64,000 nucleotides of DNA from Cystobasidiomycetes sp. EMM_F5 (GCA_051047955.1 JBPGPT010000033.1:62001-126000), one strand, 5' to 3'. Positions 9,614-25,336 are shown, counted from the first letter of the stretch. A program made the numbers and translations. The notes: a model not told the origin generated them from the sequence alone.

Positions 9614-12356
9614 ATGGTCGACGCTGCGAAAAGCCGCACATCCTCATCCACATCATCACAGTCGACGAACCACGGACACAGCGGTGCTATGGGCATCGCG
9701 CCGGAAGCCATGTCCGCGGGAGAGGAGCTGAGGGATTTGCAGGGACTATCGCTCAACAGCTCGCCGGTCAAGGCATCTCCGAGCAACCAGACGCGCGCAT
9801 CGTCGTCGGATCCTGCTGAAAGTGTGCCAGGAATGCCCATGTTTGTCGAATCTGGCGATATGGACGATGTGGATGACGACGACGATGAGGACGGTGGACG
9901 GAAAGGCAAGAAAGGCCAGCCCAACCCTGGACGTCGGAAGATTGAGATTGAGTATATCGAGGATAAGGCAGGTCGTCAGATGCTTGCTCATTGTCGTCTT
10001 GTAAGCGCGACTGACCTGTACGCCACTAGAGTAAAAGACACATCACTTTCAGTAAACGGAAAGCGGGCATCATGAAGAAGGTGCGTCAGCGACTAATGTG
10101 CTAGAAACGGTCCATTCATTATTCTCCTTTACAGGCTTACGAGCTCTCAACCTTGACCGGCACTCAAGTATTGCTCCTGGTCGTATCTGAAACCGGACTT
10201 GTCTACACGTATACCACTACTAAGCTGCAAGCACTAGTTACTGCAAAGGAGGGCAAAGCCCTGATTCAGGTGAGCTGCGAAGAATGTAGAAGCTGGATCA
10301 TACCTTATACTCCATCGCGACAGGCTTGTCTGACAGCCGAAGAAGGGGAGCCACCTTTTGGCAACAAGGCTGACATGCAGCCTGCGCCGACTACGAGAAT
10401 GCGCTCCGATCATCGTAAGGTCAGCATGCAAGTCCGCATGAATGGCAGCAATCATAATCATCACCACGCCGCGAATGGGCACGACCCTGCCATTGGCAAT
10501 CAGTATGCACAAGCGGGCCCGCCTATGAGTCAACCACAACCGTCACCCGGAATACCTCCTGTCAGTATGCAACAGCAGCAAGCTCAATACATGCAACCAT
10601 TGGCACCACAATACGTCTATCCGCAACAAACGATCTCTGGAGCTGCCCTCATGCCTCCATCAGCTCCCATGCAGTATCCGCAGGCTCCGTCCAACCTACC
10701 AATGCCAATGGCAATGACTAGTATTCCGCCGATGCCGATGCCAACCTCGACACCTTTACCTGACACCACGAGCACGAGCCGTACACTGAAGAAGCGTAAG
10801 ACGACCGATAATCTTCGCACAAGCAAGGAGTCACTCGAACAAGCAGAGGCAAAGCGAGCGGAGGCTCTTCAACTGGCGCAAGACTGTCTGGAACAGGCCC
10901 GACAGGTAGGCCGCCCTCAACTTTTCGCGAGTGTAAGTCACTGACGCCGATAAATAGCATGCAACAATTGGCAATCTTCTCAGAGCCTTCCAACAACAAG
11001 ACGTGGCTGCAAGGAGTAAACAGTCGAAAGCGCAGTCTGATGGCGGTATAGCAGAGGGCCTGGACAGTACTATTCAGCTGTTCCAAATGAGCTGCGAAGA
11101 TACCGCTCGGGGCGTCGAGATGGAACAGGCGCGGCTTAGAGGACAGAGATGGATTGACAATGTCGGAGTGGCTCATCTACCGGATGCGATAGACGAATTT
11201 ATTCACGACTTCTTAGGTGAGAAGGCTGGGAGGCTATGCTCCATCTAACGAGAGCTAAATCCTGCGCCGATACTCTGACAGTCAACAAATGCATCAAATC
11301 GCCAAAGGACGTGAAATTAGCAGCAAAAGATCTACAGAACTTTTCGGACTGGCTTTTTGCCCATTCTTTTGCAGGGCCTGACCTCCATCAGCAACTGGTC
11401 GGCCGATGCAATAGCTCTACGAAGTCTGTTATGAAGAAAGCATCGGAGGGCATGCTTCAGCCAGGTGGTATGACGTCCATGTCTCTTCCACCGATGCCGT
11501 TGGCATCAAACGGACTTGTACAGCCAGCGGCCAACCCAGCACTCCGCGCCGAAGTGGCAGGGAAAACGCTCAGTAAGCGACTGATCGTGCTCAAGCGGCC
11601 TTATATAGCTGACGATATTACTGCAGTCGATTACTGCGAGTTTGCTCGGAAGCACTACGAAGGGGTCGGTCAAGAACAAGGTGTCACTGCAGTGAACGGA
11701 TACTTCATTGTTGATCGCGTCAGATCCTCATATGTCATTCTGAGAGGCATTCCGATAGGTGCGTACCGCCGTCGTGAGACGAGGGCTAGGTGCTAAATGC
11801 TATTGGGGTGGCCATCGTAGAGGGTGACCCGCATTCGAACTCTGAGCCTGGACCGTTCAAAGTTAGAATGCCAGCGATTCTTACCTGCAACCTTAGGCCT
11901 CGAGATCAGTTCTTACTCTCCTTGAATCGATACGCGCACATCAATTACTGGTTTCCCACGGCTTGCGGGTGAGTTTAGGCATGGCACTCATGGTCATCCC
12001 ATTTGCTGACATTCTCCACGGTAAGCGATGTGCATCCAACAACGGACGACGATATGGCGGAAGATCCGCTGAACTCTCAATATCACCATATGGAATTGGA
12101 CAAGGCCCAACGGGCGAATGATCAGATGGCCTTCAACTATCACGTTGGCGAATTCCAATTCTGTAGCAAAGCGACACAGCTCATGGATGAAGGGGAATTG
12201 CCCGAAGACGGCTTTGGAGGTGTCAGTGTGCAACAAGTGATGCATCCTCGACCCAGTCAGCCAGACCTGCACGATGCCGCTTCTCGGCCAGTGCGGCGGC
12301 AGCCGTCTCGAGCTGCAAATGGGGGACAAGGGTGGGGAGGGCCGCAGCAATTCTAG
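9614..12356 (+). CDS. MCM1: SRF/Mcm1-type MADS-box transcription factor with an unusual folded C-terminal domain
   Basis: Spliced MADS box GRRKIEIEYIEDKSKRHITFSKRKAGIMKKAYELSTLTGTQVLLLVVSETGLVYTYTT, then a Q/P-rich linker and further in-frame exons to the stop at 12356. Confidence 0.9.
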
Positions 12357-18890: not shown

Positions 18891-19836
18891 ATGTCCGGTT
18901 TCTTTGAGCATGTTGACTTTGGACGCAGCAGTCTGTGGATTGCTATAGCGAGCATCCTCTTCAACCCAATATACTGGAACATACTTGCGCAGTCTGGTAT
19001 GTTTGCAACGTGAACACAACGCGTGCCGAGTGCGAAAATGACGGGAAGTCTCGCAGAATACAAGCGCAAGACACTGACAAAGCTCGCGAATGGTAACCCT
19101 AGGATGGGGTGCTATGCTCTGGCCGTGTCCATCTTTCTGCTCGGAATCTTGCGTGACCATCTGTACGCCAATAAACATGGGTGTGAAGTTCGTAACAGCA
19201 GCTGATGAACCACATTATCGTGATGCAAAGCTACAATGCAGCACTTGCGGAGCAGCCGAAATGGCACGTCCTACATTATGGCGAATTCAAGCTATTGGCA
19301 GCCATTCTTTTCGTAGCGGGCTCTACGCTCGTTGTGACATCCATGTGGAAGCTTGGCGTGACTGGAACGTATCTGGGTGAGTACAAAAGTTCCCAATTGC
19401 AAAATACTGTACTGATACTGCCTCCCATTGATCTAGGGGATTACTTTGGCATACTGATGAATGCGAGCCTCACGCGACAACACTCTTCGGCGAGCCTTTA
19501 GCTGAAACTTTCCATAGGAACGGGTGGTCTCCTTCCCCTTCAACGTATGCAATAATCCCATGTACGACGGCTCGACGATGTGCTTTCTGGCGACCGCCTT
19601 ATACAAGGAGAGTCCCACGGGCTTGCTACTTTCGATACTAGTCTTTGCCGAATATCGCATAGCATTGCTGTTTGAAGAGCCATTCACTGCTAAGATAGTA
19701 CGAGAAGGAGTATACATACGGCAGACAGGTCAGGCTGACCATTTCATCTCTTCAACAGTATGCTGCTCGCGATCGCTTGCAAGCGCAAAGCGATGTCGCA
19801 AAACAGAGCTCAAGCAATAACAAAAAGTCTCGATGA
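18891..19836 (+). CDS. OPI3: Phospholipid N-methyltransferase (PEMT/Opi3)
   Basis: FNPIYWNI, GCYALAVSIF, LGVTGTYLGDYFGILM, FPFNVCNNPMYDGST, EEPFTAKIY. C-terminal KKSR* is a KKXX ER-retrieval motif. Confidence 0.96.
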
Positions 19837-20092: not shown

Positions 20093-23000
20093 CTAGAGCT
20101 CTTCATCTGACATGGTTATGTATTCACGTGTGTGTGTACCACGCTGAACACCAATGAAGGCCTCCGGGTCGGTACGCTTGAGAGGACGTGTATTCCCTGT
20201 TATGGAGATAGCTTCCGCTTGATGCACGGTGCTTTCTCCTTTCCCCTGTTCTTGATCAGATCCTGTGTCCTGATTCTGATCTTCGTCCTCACTGTCCTCA
20301 CTGCTGTCACTTCTGGTATCGTTGTCCGACTCATCACCAGAATTTTCCGCGTCAGATTCAACAGCGCCGACTTCTTCCGTTTCGGCATGTTCGTCTTCCC
20401 CATGAGAATCAGTTGGACTCCCTGCCATGACGCTCTGCCAGAGCCTCTGCTCGTAAGCAATGTCGGCTAGCTGATCTTGCTCGTCAGTGCGTGCTTCCTC
20501 GGCCAAAACGTGGGCGAGATCATCGTCGCTGTTGTCGTCCTCGTTGTCACTGTCGCCGTCGCCCTCAGAACTGTGCAGCACCTCATTGTCGATTGCAGGT
20601 ATGTCACGAATCCTTCCGTTCTCATCCGAGACTTGATAGTAACTCTCGACAACTGTATCACAGTCGGCCATATTCTTGTCGCTAGAAGCAGAGTATTCAG
20701 ACGGTAGAAAGAGACTGCCTCTGGTGAAACAATGCGATACAGAAGCAGGAGCACTTAATCCACTCGGAGCACCAACGTGATTAGGCTCATGATCCGGTAA
20801 TCTGAGTACTCGACGAAGACGCTGAAAGTACGTAGATATGTAGCTCTTGGATTGCATTAGCGATCTGCTCCGGGAGTGACCACCTTGTGCTGCAGCGAGC
20901 AGAACATGCGACTTTGAAAGTCGTGGCTGTAATATGGTTTTAGCGGAAGCGATGCGTCCATCTTTTTGACACGGCCCCTCACCGAGTCCAATGCGATAGC
21001 GACGTTGGAAGACGTGACCACTAATTTCCGTATTTGTCGAAGCAAGACGGCGTGTAATGCCTGAATTGCTTGCACAGATACTGCGGCTTCCGTTTCCTCT
21101 GTGTCATAACGGTACAAGCTTTCGCGATCGTCAGTACGGTAAGGTAGTAGTATGACGGAAGAGCGTACTCCAGCAACACGCTTAGTTTCTCCAAGTTAAA
21201 AAGTCGGCCAGCTTCACCGAAAGAGGCTCGCGACACTGAAACTGCTTTGACCTGTCTAGATGCCTGTTGCAGTTCCTCGCGAATGCCATCGCTGGCTGGC
21301 CAGCCCTTCCAAACTTTTTCCTCGCAGATCGACAAAGGAATGTTTGTCCACGCCTGGGCTGCCCTCAGTCGCAGCTTCCGCTTCTTGTTTTCCCGATTTG
21401 CGACATTGTCTTCCCGGGTACTTGCAAGGCGAACAATATCCTGGATATCAAAGGACTGCAACCCGTTTGTTGCAGCAGCTTGCGCGATGTCATTGTAGAT
21501 TGCCTCTTTGCGGTACCAAGGGATATCATCCAAGCCTGCCTCGTCAAGAAGATAGGCAACCCTTCTTCGAACAGCCTCGCCTTCACCTCGTTCGCAAGCA
21601 TCCCATAGTTCCGCCACAGGTTCAGCCTGCTGTTGACGGCCCATGTTGACGGCAAGCAACTGCTTCCAGTTGACACTTGACAGAAACTCCGCCTGTACTG
21701 CCCTGCAGTGAATTGTAAGAATGGAGACCTGCGAAGTGTCAGGCACCTCTACCTTTTTAGCTTGCGCTTTGAGAGCGTGCGAGCAGGCCTCTTGTTTTGC
21801 GGAATCATTGATGCAGAACTGACGCTGCGTGTCAATCCGCTATTCCCTACGCAGCTATGTTCAAAGCTTACTGTGTTCCTCCTGTAGACATCACGGGTGC
21901 AGTGATATCAGCGCCGACTTTGATGTCAAGCTGAGTATTCCCCGGAGTTCGTTCTATGGCTTCTTCTTTGTTTGAGCTCGTGGCATGCATGCGGTACATG
22001 ATAGCCAGTGCCGAACTCTGCACCCGGTCCCGTGAAGCGCTTGGTGTGCGAGCAGCCTGGTCACACAAAGCTTCCCATATGATCATGTCTTCGGCAAGCT
22101 GCTCTTCTCCAGCACTCCAGCCCGCACTCATTTCGTGTGCTACTGGCATTGCAGATGGGGCCAACGGTACGGCGCTTTCGGCGGCTTCCGCAAGATGTTC
22201 CAGATAAGTTTGAACTTGTGCCACGGTCTTGGTACCGACATCGTGGGCAACCAGGTCGGTCCGCCAGCGTGAGTGGCGCGACAGTGCATTGAAAAAGCGA
22301 TGCAGCTCATCCTCGGACCAAACATCAAGGAATAAACTGTGTGAAGCATCTTCTTCGACGTCTGATTCGTCTGTATGTACCTTCTCGTCCAACCCTACCG
22401 TTCCTTCTATTCCCGATGCATCTGCAGCAGCAATGTCCTCAAACATTGTTCTGGAGCCAGTAAATCGCGACTCCGTAGCAAAAATTGCATCATCGAGCAG
22501 ACTTCTGTATGCGGCTGCGCGTTTCGGGTGTCTGAGCATGCATAACGGATTGCGGCGATGATGTCGAGACAATTCCAGATTGGAGGGAAACATAGTGAAA
22601 CAGTAGCGGCATAGGGCAGATGAGTGAATGAAGTTCGGTGGAGCAGGCAGCAGCAGAGGCGTGGTGTCAGGCAGCTCGGGCAGCTCGACGTCCAGCAATG
22701 CATGCAGAGGTTCATCAAGCCCTAACTGTTGTAACGCAGATCTGACGAATCGTAGCGGAATAAGCTTTGGCGCAGCTGGACAGAGCCCGTAAGCGCCGCA
22801 TGAAGAACGTGTGGATGTACCCACACTTTCCGGTAAGCTCGAGCTGCACGTCCTCTTCTTCAGCCAAGTCTAAAAGCTGCCTTACAGCACTCGCTTCGGT
22901 TGATTCGCCAAGGAGTATCCGTGTCAATCGTACCAACTGTGTACAGGCATTCAATAGCCTGAATGATGTTGCTGATGGATAAACTGACCGGTTTGACTTG

Positions 23001-23961
23001 GAAATTGGAATCGCTTCGTCGCCTGTAGAGGACAAAAGGCCCACACTTCGCAATGTACCACACTGAGCCGTCTTTGAACCTATGTTCATACACTGCTGAA
23101 ACGTCAAATTCCAAGTTTGGCATGGCAGTGACGGGCACTGGCGTCGTCAAAGAGGGGACAGGGTGGACCACGGAATCTGATCTTTCGCTTCCTGCGGTTA
23201 CCACTTCCTCGAGTTCGCCATGAGAAAGAGATGGTGGCTGCGGGGTTTCAGTCGAGACTGTCGCGATACCTGCCTTTGATTCAGCTTGCTCGGTCCAATC
23301 ACCGGGTGCATGCTGGACATCGATTGAGCAAGCGAATGAACTCTCCTGCAATCCGTTTCGACGCATAGAAAAACAGCTCTCTTTTGACATCATCTGTCTG
23401 AAGCTCTTCTGCAGGGCATACATTCAATACGAGACGGATAGACTGATATAGGCCGACACAGCACGTACCTCCCATCGAAGCTTTTTGCCTGGCTGCAGAG
23501 AACTACAGAGTACTATCGTCAGATTTAGATACCTGCACATCACGCACAGTGACGTACGGAAAAACCTTGGAGACATCGGTTGCCAGTTTGCTCCAATCTA
23601 CGTAGACATCGGAGCCATAGTTTTCCAGCAACACAGAACGAGCAATGTCGCGGTATTTGACCTGAAATCGAAGCTATCAGCTTGTTTGCGTACAAGATTT
23701 TTGCGTACTTACGGTGGGGTGACCTTCGTCATCGACGTGCAATGATAATTCGGCCAGCGGTATATGCGAACGGGTAGGATCTGACGGATATCATAACTTA
23801 AGCTATACATTAGTGATGCCGCAACCGGTGTATTTGCCTGTACTGGTTTCGCGCGAATGTTTGACGAGTCTGGCTTTTTTGACGGGCTTGCTAGCTGCTG
23901 ACTCTGCATTATCCAATGGCCGACAGGTCTCCGCGCCGTCTGAGCGCCGTCTTTTGGCCAT
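20093..23961 (-). CDS. Multi-domain nuclear protein: divergent forkhead + KilA-N/APSES-like + C2H2 finger + SANT/Myb + Rrn5-like histone-fold region + acidic tail
   Basis: About ten GT-AG introns join all ORF fragments in frame from MAKRRRSDG (ATG 23961). SANT WSEDELHRFFNALSRHSRWRTDLVAHDVGTKTVAQVQTYL resembles Rrn5 (Pol I UAF subunit). Confidence 0.7.
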
Positions 23962-23991: not shown

Positions 23992-25336
23992 ATGTCATCA
24001 GCCATGCAAACACGTCAATCAGCTGGTGGGCGGCAGACCCCGACCCTCAAGGCGGACGAGACGGCCGTATATTCCGACGACTTGCACATTGACAGAATCC
24101 TGTGCATTCGAATGCTCAGGCTGCCACCTCAACAGATTGCGCTCAACGTGCCCTTCGATATCATGGTCTCCATCACCGATGATGTCGGTACACAAATACC
24201 AGATTATGGTCAAATATTGTGTAAGTCGTCTAAGCAGGAGGTACGCCATGAACACGCCGACACGCTGAGCATTCTACAGTATCTGTTGATTGCATAGAGT
24301 ACGCAAACCTATGCAGCCCGTCGAAGCACTTCGCAGCAGAGTGCACGTCAACAGGCTCCTCGGAGTTTGTCATTGACTCGCGACAGACATTGTACCACAA
24401 AGTCAACGTAAAGGTTCTCGCCGTAGCGAAGCAGCACATATACGATGCTGCCGTTACGCCTACTTTTTCCCTTTGTGTCTCCGTAACTCCACAGCAAGGT
24501 CGGCAATCCGTAACCCCTGCGGTCTGCCAAATGATCTCCGAGCATCGTCTTCTGCGTTGGGAAGCACAAGATTTGTCGGTACTGCTCCTTCGCTGTTGTA
24601 GCGGTGAAATAAGCGTGCGTGGTTCGAAGTCTGGGCCGAAGAGTGAGGTCGAACGATATTTTCGTAGAAGACATACATGGCTAAAGTCGTGATAGTCGAA
24701 ACCACGGAAATGGCTTTCTCCTTGCCAAGTGGTGCCCATAGTCAAATAGTGCGGATAGTGGAGAAGCCAGCGCAGCACATTATTGGCGACCACGTCTGGC
24801 ACTCGTCCATCGTTTTCGCCTACTGGCTTGCCTATATTCGACCTTTCATGCTCGTCAGTGACGGAAGTGGCATCATTGAGCTCGGAGCTGGGTGCGGACT
24901 CGCTTCGCTAGTTGCGGCAGCAACGTTCCCGACTTCGGTGACTATCATAGCCACTGATCTGGCCGAAGTCGTAAACACGACGCTGCGGGACAATCTGCTC
25001 TCCAACAGCGACCTTGGTGATCGCATCACTGCCACCACGCTAGAATGGGGAGACATCGACGCGTCAAATCACTTAGCTGCAGGAGATCTGATTTCTGATT
25101 GCCTCATTTTCGCAGTCGATGTGCTATATAATCAAGACTCGCACACCCTCCTCCTAGCAAGCCTGGAGGGTTTGTTCATCAGATTCGGGGCGGCGACACA
25201 GGCATATATAGGCTATAAGCACCGAATCGCTGGAGATGGCGATTTTTTCGATATGGCCAGACAGAGGCACTTCCGCGTCGCGGTTGTATACCGCTTGGCT
25301 GATGTCGAAATTTGGCGCATGACTAGCCCGAGATAG
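23992..25336 (+). CDS. Seven-beta-strand protein methyltransferase (Methyltransf_16/METTL21-like) with a fungal N-terminal domain
   Basis: IGDHVWHSS, IIELGAGCGL, IIATDL, LEWG, FAVDVLY. N-terminal CIRMLRLPP...VSITDDVG block. Two introns. Confidence 0.85.

Follow-up and report, generated by a model that had tools for sequence, protein, structure and literature searches.

How many DNA-binding folds a fungal Rrn5, the SANT and histone-fold subunit of the RNA polymerase I (Pol I) upstream activation factor (UAF), can carry is the question raised by a gene of Cystobasidiomycetes sp. EMM_F5 (GCA_051047955.1), found in a stretch of 64,000 nucleotides (JBPGPT010000033.1:62001-126000) that was analysed as a whole and is called the window here. 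All coordinates are those of the whole window, the gene lies on the minus strand, and "the draft" denotes its spliced product of 11 exons. A preliminary description had read this product as an Rrn5-like protein preceded by three extra DNA-binding folds, namely a forkhead, a KilA-N/APSES-like domain and a C2H2 zinc finger. We find that the locus probably encodes an Rrn5 homologue as one gene of about 11 exons with a long N-terminal extension. Within this reading the Rrn5 identity is well supported, and the extension, of about 420 residues, holds at least one conserved zinc finger and a small folded module of unassigned type, while the presence of a forkhead and an APSES domain on a Pol I factor is unproven. 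The features on which the identity is based are the following.

20093..23961, minus strand: whole Rrn5-like coding region, from the open frame after intron removal and codon usage
22174..22335, minus strand: SANT domain (residues 439-492), AlphaFold2 (AF2) predicted local distance difference test score (pLDDT) 92-95, exon 7 modelled with 14 relatives
22069..22146, minus strand: Rrn5-specific post-SANT segment PVAHEMSAGWSAGEEQLAEDMIIWEA (residues 502-527), aligned to PIAYEMSAEWVALETKLSE of 7z0o_D and to the family profile
20798..21203, minus strand: histone-fold-like region (residues 782-881, across introns 9 and 10), from the match of profile A2 to residues 760-1012, E 2.7e-14
20429..20524, minus strand: conserved C-terminal motif DDLAHVLAEEARTDEQDQLADIAYEQRLWQSV (residues 973-1004) inside the acidic tail, aligned to P0044, P0105, P0107 and the profile

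Exon 7 alone matches yeast Rrn5 (7z0o_D, chain D of PDB entry 7z0o) at E 1.7e-4 over query residues 145-233, which cover SANT and the helix after it, and the alignment places PVAHEMSAGWSAGEEQLAED of exon 7 against PIAYEMSAEWVALETKLSE of the yeast protein. An exhaustive library search with the same exon returned 190 proteins at E ≤0.001, and a profile built from 40 annotated, longer fungal homologues (profile A2) finds 7z0o_D as its sole PDB match (E 9.7e-15) and matches the draft twice, at residues 427-548 (E 1.8e-35) and again at residues 760-1012. The SANT domain is further recognised with 98 bits by a SANT profile made from 156 Rrn5 sequences, and the top Foldseek rows for the exon 7 model are SANT/Myb folds (root-mean-square deviation 1.2-1.5 over 42-51 residues, every E >0.1); 7z0o is absent from the 46 rows listed. 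A word-index search against longer proteins gave no homologue, either for exon 7 or for the alignment of close relatives introduced below (A1). The SANT domain is directly followed by the helix segment specific to Rrn5, and both the SANT domain and the Rrn5-like identity proposed in the preliminary description are borne out by the model and by the matches to yeast and family.

The C-terminal 700 residues are those of an ordinary fungal Rrn5, comprising SANT, the specific helices, a histone-fold-like region and an acidic tail. The second match of the family profile includes LFNLEKLSVLL, the AIQALHAVLLRQIRKLV helix, RLSKSHVLL, YFQRLRR and DDLAHVLAEE...YEQRLW, the homologue P0044 aligns over draft residues 782-1039, and the profile region of the C-terminal motif (LxxE..D..YE..LW) weakly touches residues 300-358 of 7z0o_D. 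Asp and Glu make up 30% of the last 174 residues, in agreement with the acidic tail described earlier. The histone-fold segment described there fared less evenly, as its quoted strings AIQALHAVLLRQIRKLV, LSKSHVLLAA and YFQRLRR are all present and lie where the family profile matches, but the yeast fold itself is not matched directly. Separately, the A2 proteins share a basic segment, LSPASRRR.QKRLYMRRKRA..G....RLKPGRK, that is strongly conserved and lies after SANT and before the histone-fold-like region, and for which no alignment to the window protein was obtained; this segment goes unmentioned in those passages on the yeast UAF that were consulted.

What sets the window protein apart lies ahead of SANT. 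The SANT Trp is residue 444 of the draft, and about 420 residues precede the domain here versus roughly 45-60 in most homologues; the extension is unusual because SANT is found at residue 80 or earlier in 69 of the 85 library matches that are at least 400 amino acids long and have a mapped SANT. From the N-terminus it consists of a start resembling a nuclear localization signal (NLS), a short block with a motif resembling forkhead helix 3, a disordered linker, a small beta-meander followed by helices, an LPxLPD motif and the zinc finger, and the parts that can be placed most closely are given here.

22690..22767, minus strand: conserved helical segment KLIPLRFVRSALQQLGLDEPLHALLD (residues 295-320), AF2 helix at exon residues 5-15 and 18-21 with pLDDT 76-87, aligning with the relatives
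22540..22611, minus strand: zinc finger CRYC-x12-HH-x5-C (residues 347-370), AF2 beta-beta-alpha with pLDDT 84-88
23117-22989, minus strand: four-strand beta-meander (residues ~213-254), from the AF2 model of exon 5
23370..23474, minus strand: WEKSFRQMMSKESCF (residues 113-127, across intron 4), resembling forkhead helix 3, BLOSUM62 score 39

The C-terminal third of the extension is conserved in 14 close relatives (P0002-P0015, alignment A1), which are open reading frame (ORF) fragments of 215-369 amino acids, 25-33% identical to the window protein. Conservation covers the exon 6 helix, KLIPLRFVRSALQQLGLDEPLH (predicted by AF2 to be helical, pLDDT 76-87), LPxLPDDAP and the finger. When modelled with the 14 relatives, the finger has strands at exon residues 51-52 and 59-60 and a helix at 63-72; its pattern recurs in 11 of the relatives, the remaining three being shorter fragments that do not reach it. 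The conserved ligands follow C-x2-C-x12-H-x6-8-C, the fourth ligand in the relatives being a Cys 6-8 residues after the His, and the window sequence, C-x2-C-x12-H-H-x5-C, departs from the classical C2H2 spacing (C-x2-4-C-x12-H-x3-5-H). Pfam places the window finger below threshold in zf-C2H2_4 (E 0.069-0.14), and two relatives likewise below threshold in zf-C2H2_4 (P0006, E 1.5e-3) and zf-C2HC_2 (P0015, E 2.3e-4). The finger is real and, by its conserved ligands, C2HC-like: of the C2H2 finger originally proposed, the beta-beta-alpha zinc-finger fold stands and the classical ligand class does not.

More distant homologues, too, have fingers ahead of the Rrn5 SANT (P0078, and the classical C2H2 fingers of P0019 and P0126), and N-terminal fingers are a recurrent add-on of fungal Rrn5. 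The premise that Rrn5 consists of SANT and histone fold only is accordingly correct for yeast but not for all fungi. Since the helices, LPxLPD and the finger are common to the relatives, they represent a trait of this Rrn5 lineage and not an isolated fusion; the lineage-specific extension proposed earlier holds insofar as a long N-terminus is rare, but its finger is not unique to this gene. Two metagenome scans found no relative. As a separate observation, P0091 (1312 amino acids) is Rrn5-like, places SANT at residue 597 and has a protein-kinase-like region upstream (Pkinase E 3.1e-6, below the Pfam cut-off), and may represent a merged gene model.

The extension depends on the splicing of a region in which the stop-to-stop ORFs change frame repeatedly, with a short GT-AG intron at every switch. 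In the best model, coding sequence runs on the minus strand from ATG 23961 to the stop TAG 20095-20093; splicing removes 10 GT-AG introns of 45-60 nucleotides, several with GTAAGT or GTACGT donors, and leaves 1115 open codons in the following 11 exons.

23826..23961, minus strand: exon 1 (residues 1-45), basic NLS-like start with MAKRRRS and KPVKKAR, weak coding score, short exon
23713..23780, minus strand: exon 2 (residues 46-68), GTAAGT donor at 23712
23558..23661, minus strand: exon 3 (residues 69-102), first portion of the proposed forkhead-like block, from the splice model
23469..23502, minus strand: exon 4 (residues 103-114), SLQPGKKLRWE, GTACGT donors on either side
22989..23408, minus strand: exon 5 (residues 115-254), beginning KSFRQMMSKESCF, then about 85 residues rich in S/T/P/E/Q/G, then the beta-meander
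22825..22936, minus strand: exon 6 (residues 255-291), LVRLTRILLGESTEASAVRQLLDLAEEEDVQLELTGK, no Met, homologous to the N-terminus of P0006
21872..22775, minus strand: exon 7 (residues 292-592), conserved helix, LPxLPD, zinc finger, linker, SANT and Rrn5-specific helices, from homologues and AF2
21753..21818, minus strand: exon 8 (residues 593-615), uncertain basic mini-exon with KRKLKR, from the splice model
21169..21702, minus strand: exon 9 (residues 616-792), covered in part by a contig of run X1, weak matches to P0016 and P0019
20983..21118, minus strand: exon 10 (residues 793-838), includes VSVQAIQALHAVLLRQIRKLV, from relatives and the family profile
20096..20926, minus strand: exon 11 (residues 839-1115), end of the histone-fold-like region, C-terminal motif and acidic tail, from relatives and the family profile

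Scored by codon usage, with 14 long ORFs from other parts of the window as training set, the chosen frame is preferred in eight of the 11 exons (2, 3, 5, 6, 7, 9, 10 and 11), the exceptions being the short exons 1, 4 and 8. Introns 22988-22937 and 22824-22776 are backed by relatives: P0006 aligns from draft residue 258, at the start of exon 6, and P0004 reads through the junction of exons 6 and 7 uninterrupted. The frame of exons 10 and 11 is backed by the family profile. Two other arrangements were rejected. A single 158-nucleotide intron, 22933-22776, joining exon 5 to exon 7 would discard an intervening frame 2 that is homologous to P0006 and contiguous in P0004, and an acceptor at 21099 would put the C-terminal exons in another frame, whereas the family profile backs the frame with AIQALHAVLLRQIRKLV. 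The sole public contig placed on the region (272 letters, from run X1, which is of uncertain kind and contains 6% of the words sampled from the stretch) spans 21169-21434 without gaps and ends exactly at the exon 9 donor, after which six further letters mismatch the genome, as expected of spliced RNA; this gives a weak hint of splicing. The manual splicing of the preliminary description was essentially right, all of its quoted motif strings being present in the spliced product, in which VLYRRRSDS...LVRL spans intron 5 and three others lie as follows.

23961-23941, minus strand: MAKRRRS
23889-23869, minus strand: KPVKKAR
from 23721, minus strand: HPTVKYRD

Several observations weigh against a single Rrn5 gene of this composition. 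Three junctions have alternatives that also keep the frame: the exon 1 donor may lie at 23825 or 23843 (an 18-nucleotide difference), the intron 4 acceptor at 23409 or 23394 (15 nucleotides), and exon 8, which is 66 nucleotides long, can be skipped as part of one 169-nucleotide intron, 21871-21703; this mini-exon has no support from the family profile and no match to the family's basic segment. Among the public runs, none on record as RNA contains the stretch. No exon matches the yeast histone fold directly by sequence, and the presence of this fold, reached only via the family profile, is accordingly a putative assignment. Exons 1-5 are without detectable homologue, a word-index search with exon 5 returning nothing besides the ORF of the window itself, and draft residues 1-257 are left unaligned by all 150 library matches. 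Finally, all 14 relatives carry six aligned Cys after the SANT region (A1 columns ~385-420), which the window protein does not have. These residues form a Zn2Cys6-like cluster, C-x2-C-x4-C-x6-C-x2-C-x6-C, recovered by a fixed-spacing pattern in 12 of the 14, with Pfam Zn_clus at E 0.17-1.8 in three of six relatives scanned at E up to 10, and no Cys occurs at its position in the frames inspected across window 21872-22050; a second, more canonical Rrn5 gene may exist elsewhere in the organism.

The lack of homologues for exons 1-5 and of the stretch from runs on record as RNA would also suit an arrangement of two genes, in which a small upstream gene, made of exons 1-5 and ending at TGA 22862-22860 with intron 5 retained, is followed by a separate Rrn5 gene. 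Exon 5 indeed continues in frame 1 to the stop at 22860, and the majority of Rrn5 homologues have just 45-60 residues ahead of SANT. This arrangement, however, leaves the downstream gene without a beginning. Exon 6 and the conserved head of exon 7 contain no Met, and the first ATG of their frame falls inside the zinc finger, so that translation must start in exon 5 or further upstream; exon 5 is open back to 23408, and three canonical introns connect it to ATG 23961. The ORF fragments of the relatives likewise open at the boundary of exon 6 and offer no credible start there, from which it follows that they too need upstream exons. Moreover, there is zero gap between the stop at 22860 and conserved coding sequence, exon 6 (22936-22825) itself overlapping the stop. 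The two neighbouring genes leave no space for an additional gene, and coding signal between them is confined to the minus strand, positions 23961 to 20093. One gene explains the region most economically, and we regard a division into two as highly improbable.

Given one gene, it remains to weigh what its N-terminal modules are. The searches for forkhead and KilA-N/APSES domains used exon pieces, that is, partial domains cut by introns, and are weak tests. The proposed forkhead block is divided over exons 2-5 by introns 2-4, and its most suggestive part is WEKSFRQMMSKESCF, a 15-residue stretch that resembles the helix-3 signature of forkhead domains (PF00250): it scores 39 in BLOSUM62 against the quoted helix-3 motif with six of 15 positions identical, a score reached by one of 20,000 shuffles of the draft and by none of the 150 homologues, the motif having been picked post hoc from many possible families. 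An FP pair placed 10 residues before the Trp and a spacing of hydrophobic residues like that of helices 1-2 are, we presume, further likenesses to the forkhead consensus. The base-contacting residues of helix 3 are replaced, as had been stated from the outset, Asn being Lys and His being Gln here, and the wing motif is not recognised in the window protein. Pfam gave no Forkhead match in any exon piece at E up to 1-10, nor in the 54 scanned of the 150 homologues at E up to 0.01, and neither Pfam nor PHROGs had one for relatives in which exons 6 and 7 are uninterrupted; PDB sequence searches (E up to 10) with exon 3 and the first 50 residues of exon 5 had no forkhead chain among their matches, and the ESM Atlas held no usable match for exon 3. 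Judged by its sequence, the N-terminal block possibly has a forkhead fold, although we consider this doubtful. The same block, at residues 69-125, could be taken instead for a degenerate second Myb/SANT repeat, as its aromatic-x19-W-x21-W spacing (Y71, W91 and W113; VKYRD...VDWSKL...KLRWEKSF) fits the Myb repeat pattern and one SANT is already present in Rrn5. Yet this spacing is a pattern-level likeness only, the SANT profile of 156 sequences finds nothing in the draft besides residues 437-492 even with filters off and E up to 1000, and the Pfam Myb models have no match in exon 3, leaving a repeat of this kind very unlikely.

The KilA-N block as proposed consists of the tail of exon 5, all of exon 6 and the head of exon 7. 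In the single-sequence AF2 model of exon 5, residues 1-99 have pLDDT below 50, while residues 100-140 form four strands with pLDDT 73-86; these strands, together with the following helices of the exon 7 head, may build a module of strands and then helices. KilA-N/APSES domains (PF04383) are likewise made of strands, three to four, followed by helices, and the order of elements is thus alike. Against this likeness, no profile match is found in the window or the relatives: Pfam gave no KilA-N in the window pieces (E up to 1-10), in P0004, P0006, P0007, P0008, P0010 and P0011 (E up to 10) or in the 54 scanned homologues (E up to 0.01), and PHROGs, searched at E up to 1, likewise had none, whether for the pieces or for relatives with uninterrupted exons 6 and 7. 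The partial model of exon 5 finds only generic beta-sheet rows in Foldseek (E ≥2), and the ESM Atlas had no usable match for the exon 5 tail. That the block adopts a KilA-N/APSES fold is unlikely. A chromodomain-like reading of EFDVSAVYEHRFKDGSVWYIAK, a matter of resemblance only, was rejected, with no Pfam match.

The reading first offered, a degenerate forkhead at residues ~66-135 and a KilA-N/APSES-like domain at residues ~212-320 besides the zinc finger, thus draws on the helix-3 resemblance and on the confident beta-meander that precedes conserved helices, and is opposed by the absent profile and PDB matches, the replaced Asn and His and the post hoc choice of the motif, with the caveat that negatives obtained on exon pieces are weak; taken as a whole it appears quite unlikely. 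It would be somewhat bolder still, and correspondingly improbable, to suppose that the Rrn5 lineage gained a degenerate forkhead, a KilA-N/APSES-like domain and a C2HC finger ahead of SANT, tethering the UAF core to further sequences or chromatin marks, in the rDNA or at other sites. What is well supported is more modest, namely a lineage-specific N-terminal extension with one finger.

The surroundings of the gene are ordinary chromosomal DNA of about 52% G+C, in which Pfam matches on long ORFs include GAPDH, Vps36, Dus, Cdc24, Hsp70 and Tfb4. Its neighbours, both identified by Pfam, are as follows.

19078-19820, plus strand: PEMT phospholipid methyltransferase, convergent neighbour
24668-25333, plus strand: Methyltransf_16 lysine methyltransferase, divergent neighbour with ~700 bp of common upstream DNA

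Further away, an ORF at window 10105-10941 on the plus strand contains the C-terminal half of a MADS-box SRF-TF domain (E 2.5e-6), from which a MADS transcription factor gene would lie about 10 kb from the Rrn5 gene.

These results suggest a model in which the window protein would sit, as yeast Rrn5 does, in a UAF-like histone-fold core at the ribosomal DNA (rDNA) promoter, where the N-terminal finger and its neighbouring modules may add DNA or chromatin contacts beyond the core footprint. Hallmarks of a UAF Rrn5 are assembly with Rrn9, Rrn10, Uaf30, H3 and H4 and binding to the upstream element of the rDNA. At the rDNA of yeast, UAF selects transcription by Pol I and not by Pol II. In the passages of the literature considered here, DNA recognition by UAF is described for the compact yeast complex only (PMC9020658), with roles for SANT and the H4-like fold within UAF (PMC9020658, PMC9746128). 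In some filamentous fungi, as this gene and its relatives show, Rrn5 has a conserved zinc finger ahead of SANT, accompanied by other folded segments. If these extension modules bind DNA, promoter recognition by UAF in such fungi would differ from the yeast model, and Rrn5 would offer a point at which the histone-fold core acquires new DNA-binding modules. A literature search found no paper that combines Rrn5 with a forkhead and no account of such extensions.

Compared with known Rrn5 proteins, the window protein shares with that of S. cerevisiae (7z0o chain D) the SANT domain and the P-x-A-x-E-M-S-x-x-W helix segment after it, and its acidic C-terminal end is weakly matched to the yeast one through the family profile. 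Yeast Rrn5 has an H4-like histone fold pairing with H3, according to the part of PMC9020658 consulted; the window protein may have such a fold as well, although the two are not directly alignable here by sequence. The proteins differ in size and layout: the yeast chain has 364 residues with SANT at about residue 60, whereas the window protein has 1115 with SANT at 439-492, an added finger and modules before it and much longer linkers after it. Annotated fungal Rrn5-like proteins (for example P0044, of 707 amino acids, and the A2 set) have SANT, the post-SANT segment, the LF(N/H)L..L..L region and the L..E..DE.D..YE..LW motif in common with the window protein, but they do not have its long N-terminal extension (as the mapped SANT positions show), and they carry the basic LSPASRRR..KRLYMRRKRA segment that is unaligned in the window protein. 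The relatives P0002-P0015 differ from it in the six Cys right after the SANT region, and share with it the exon 6 helix, LPxLPDDAP, the finger, SANT and the post-SANT helices.

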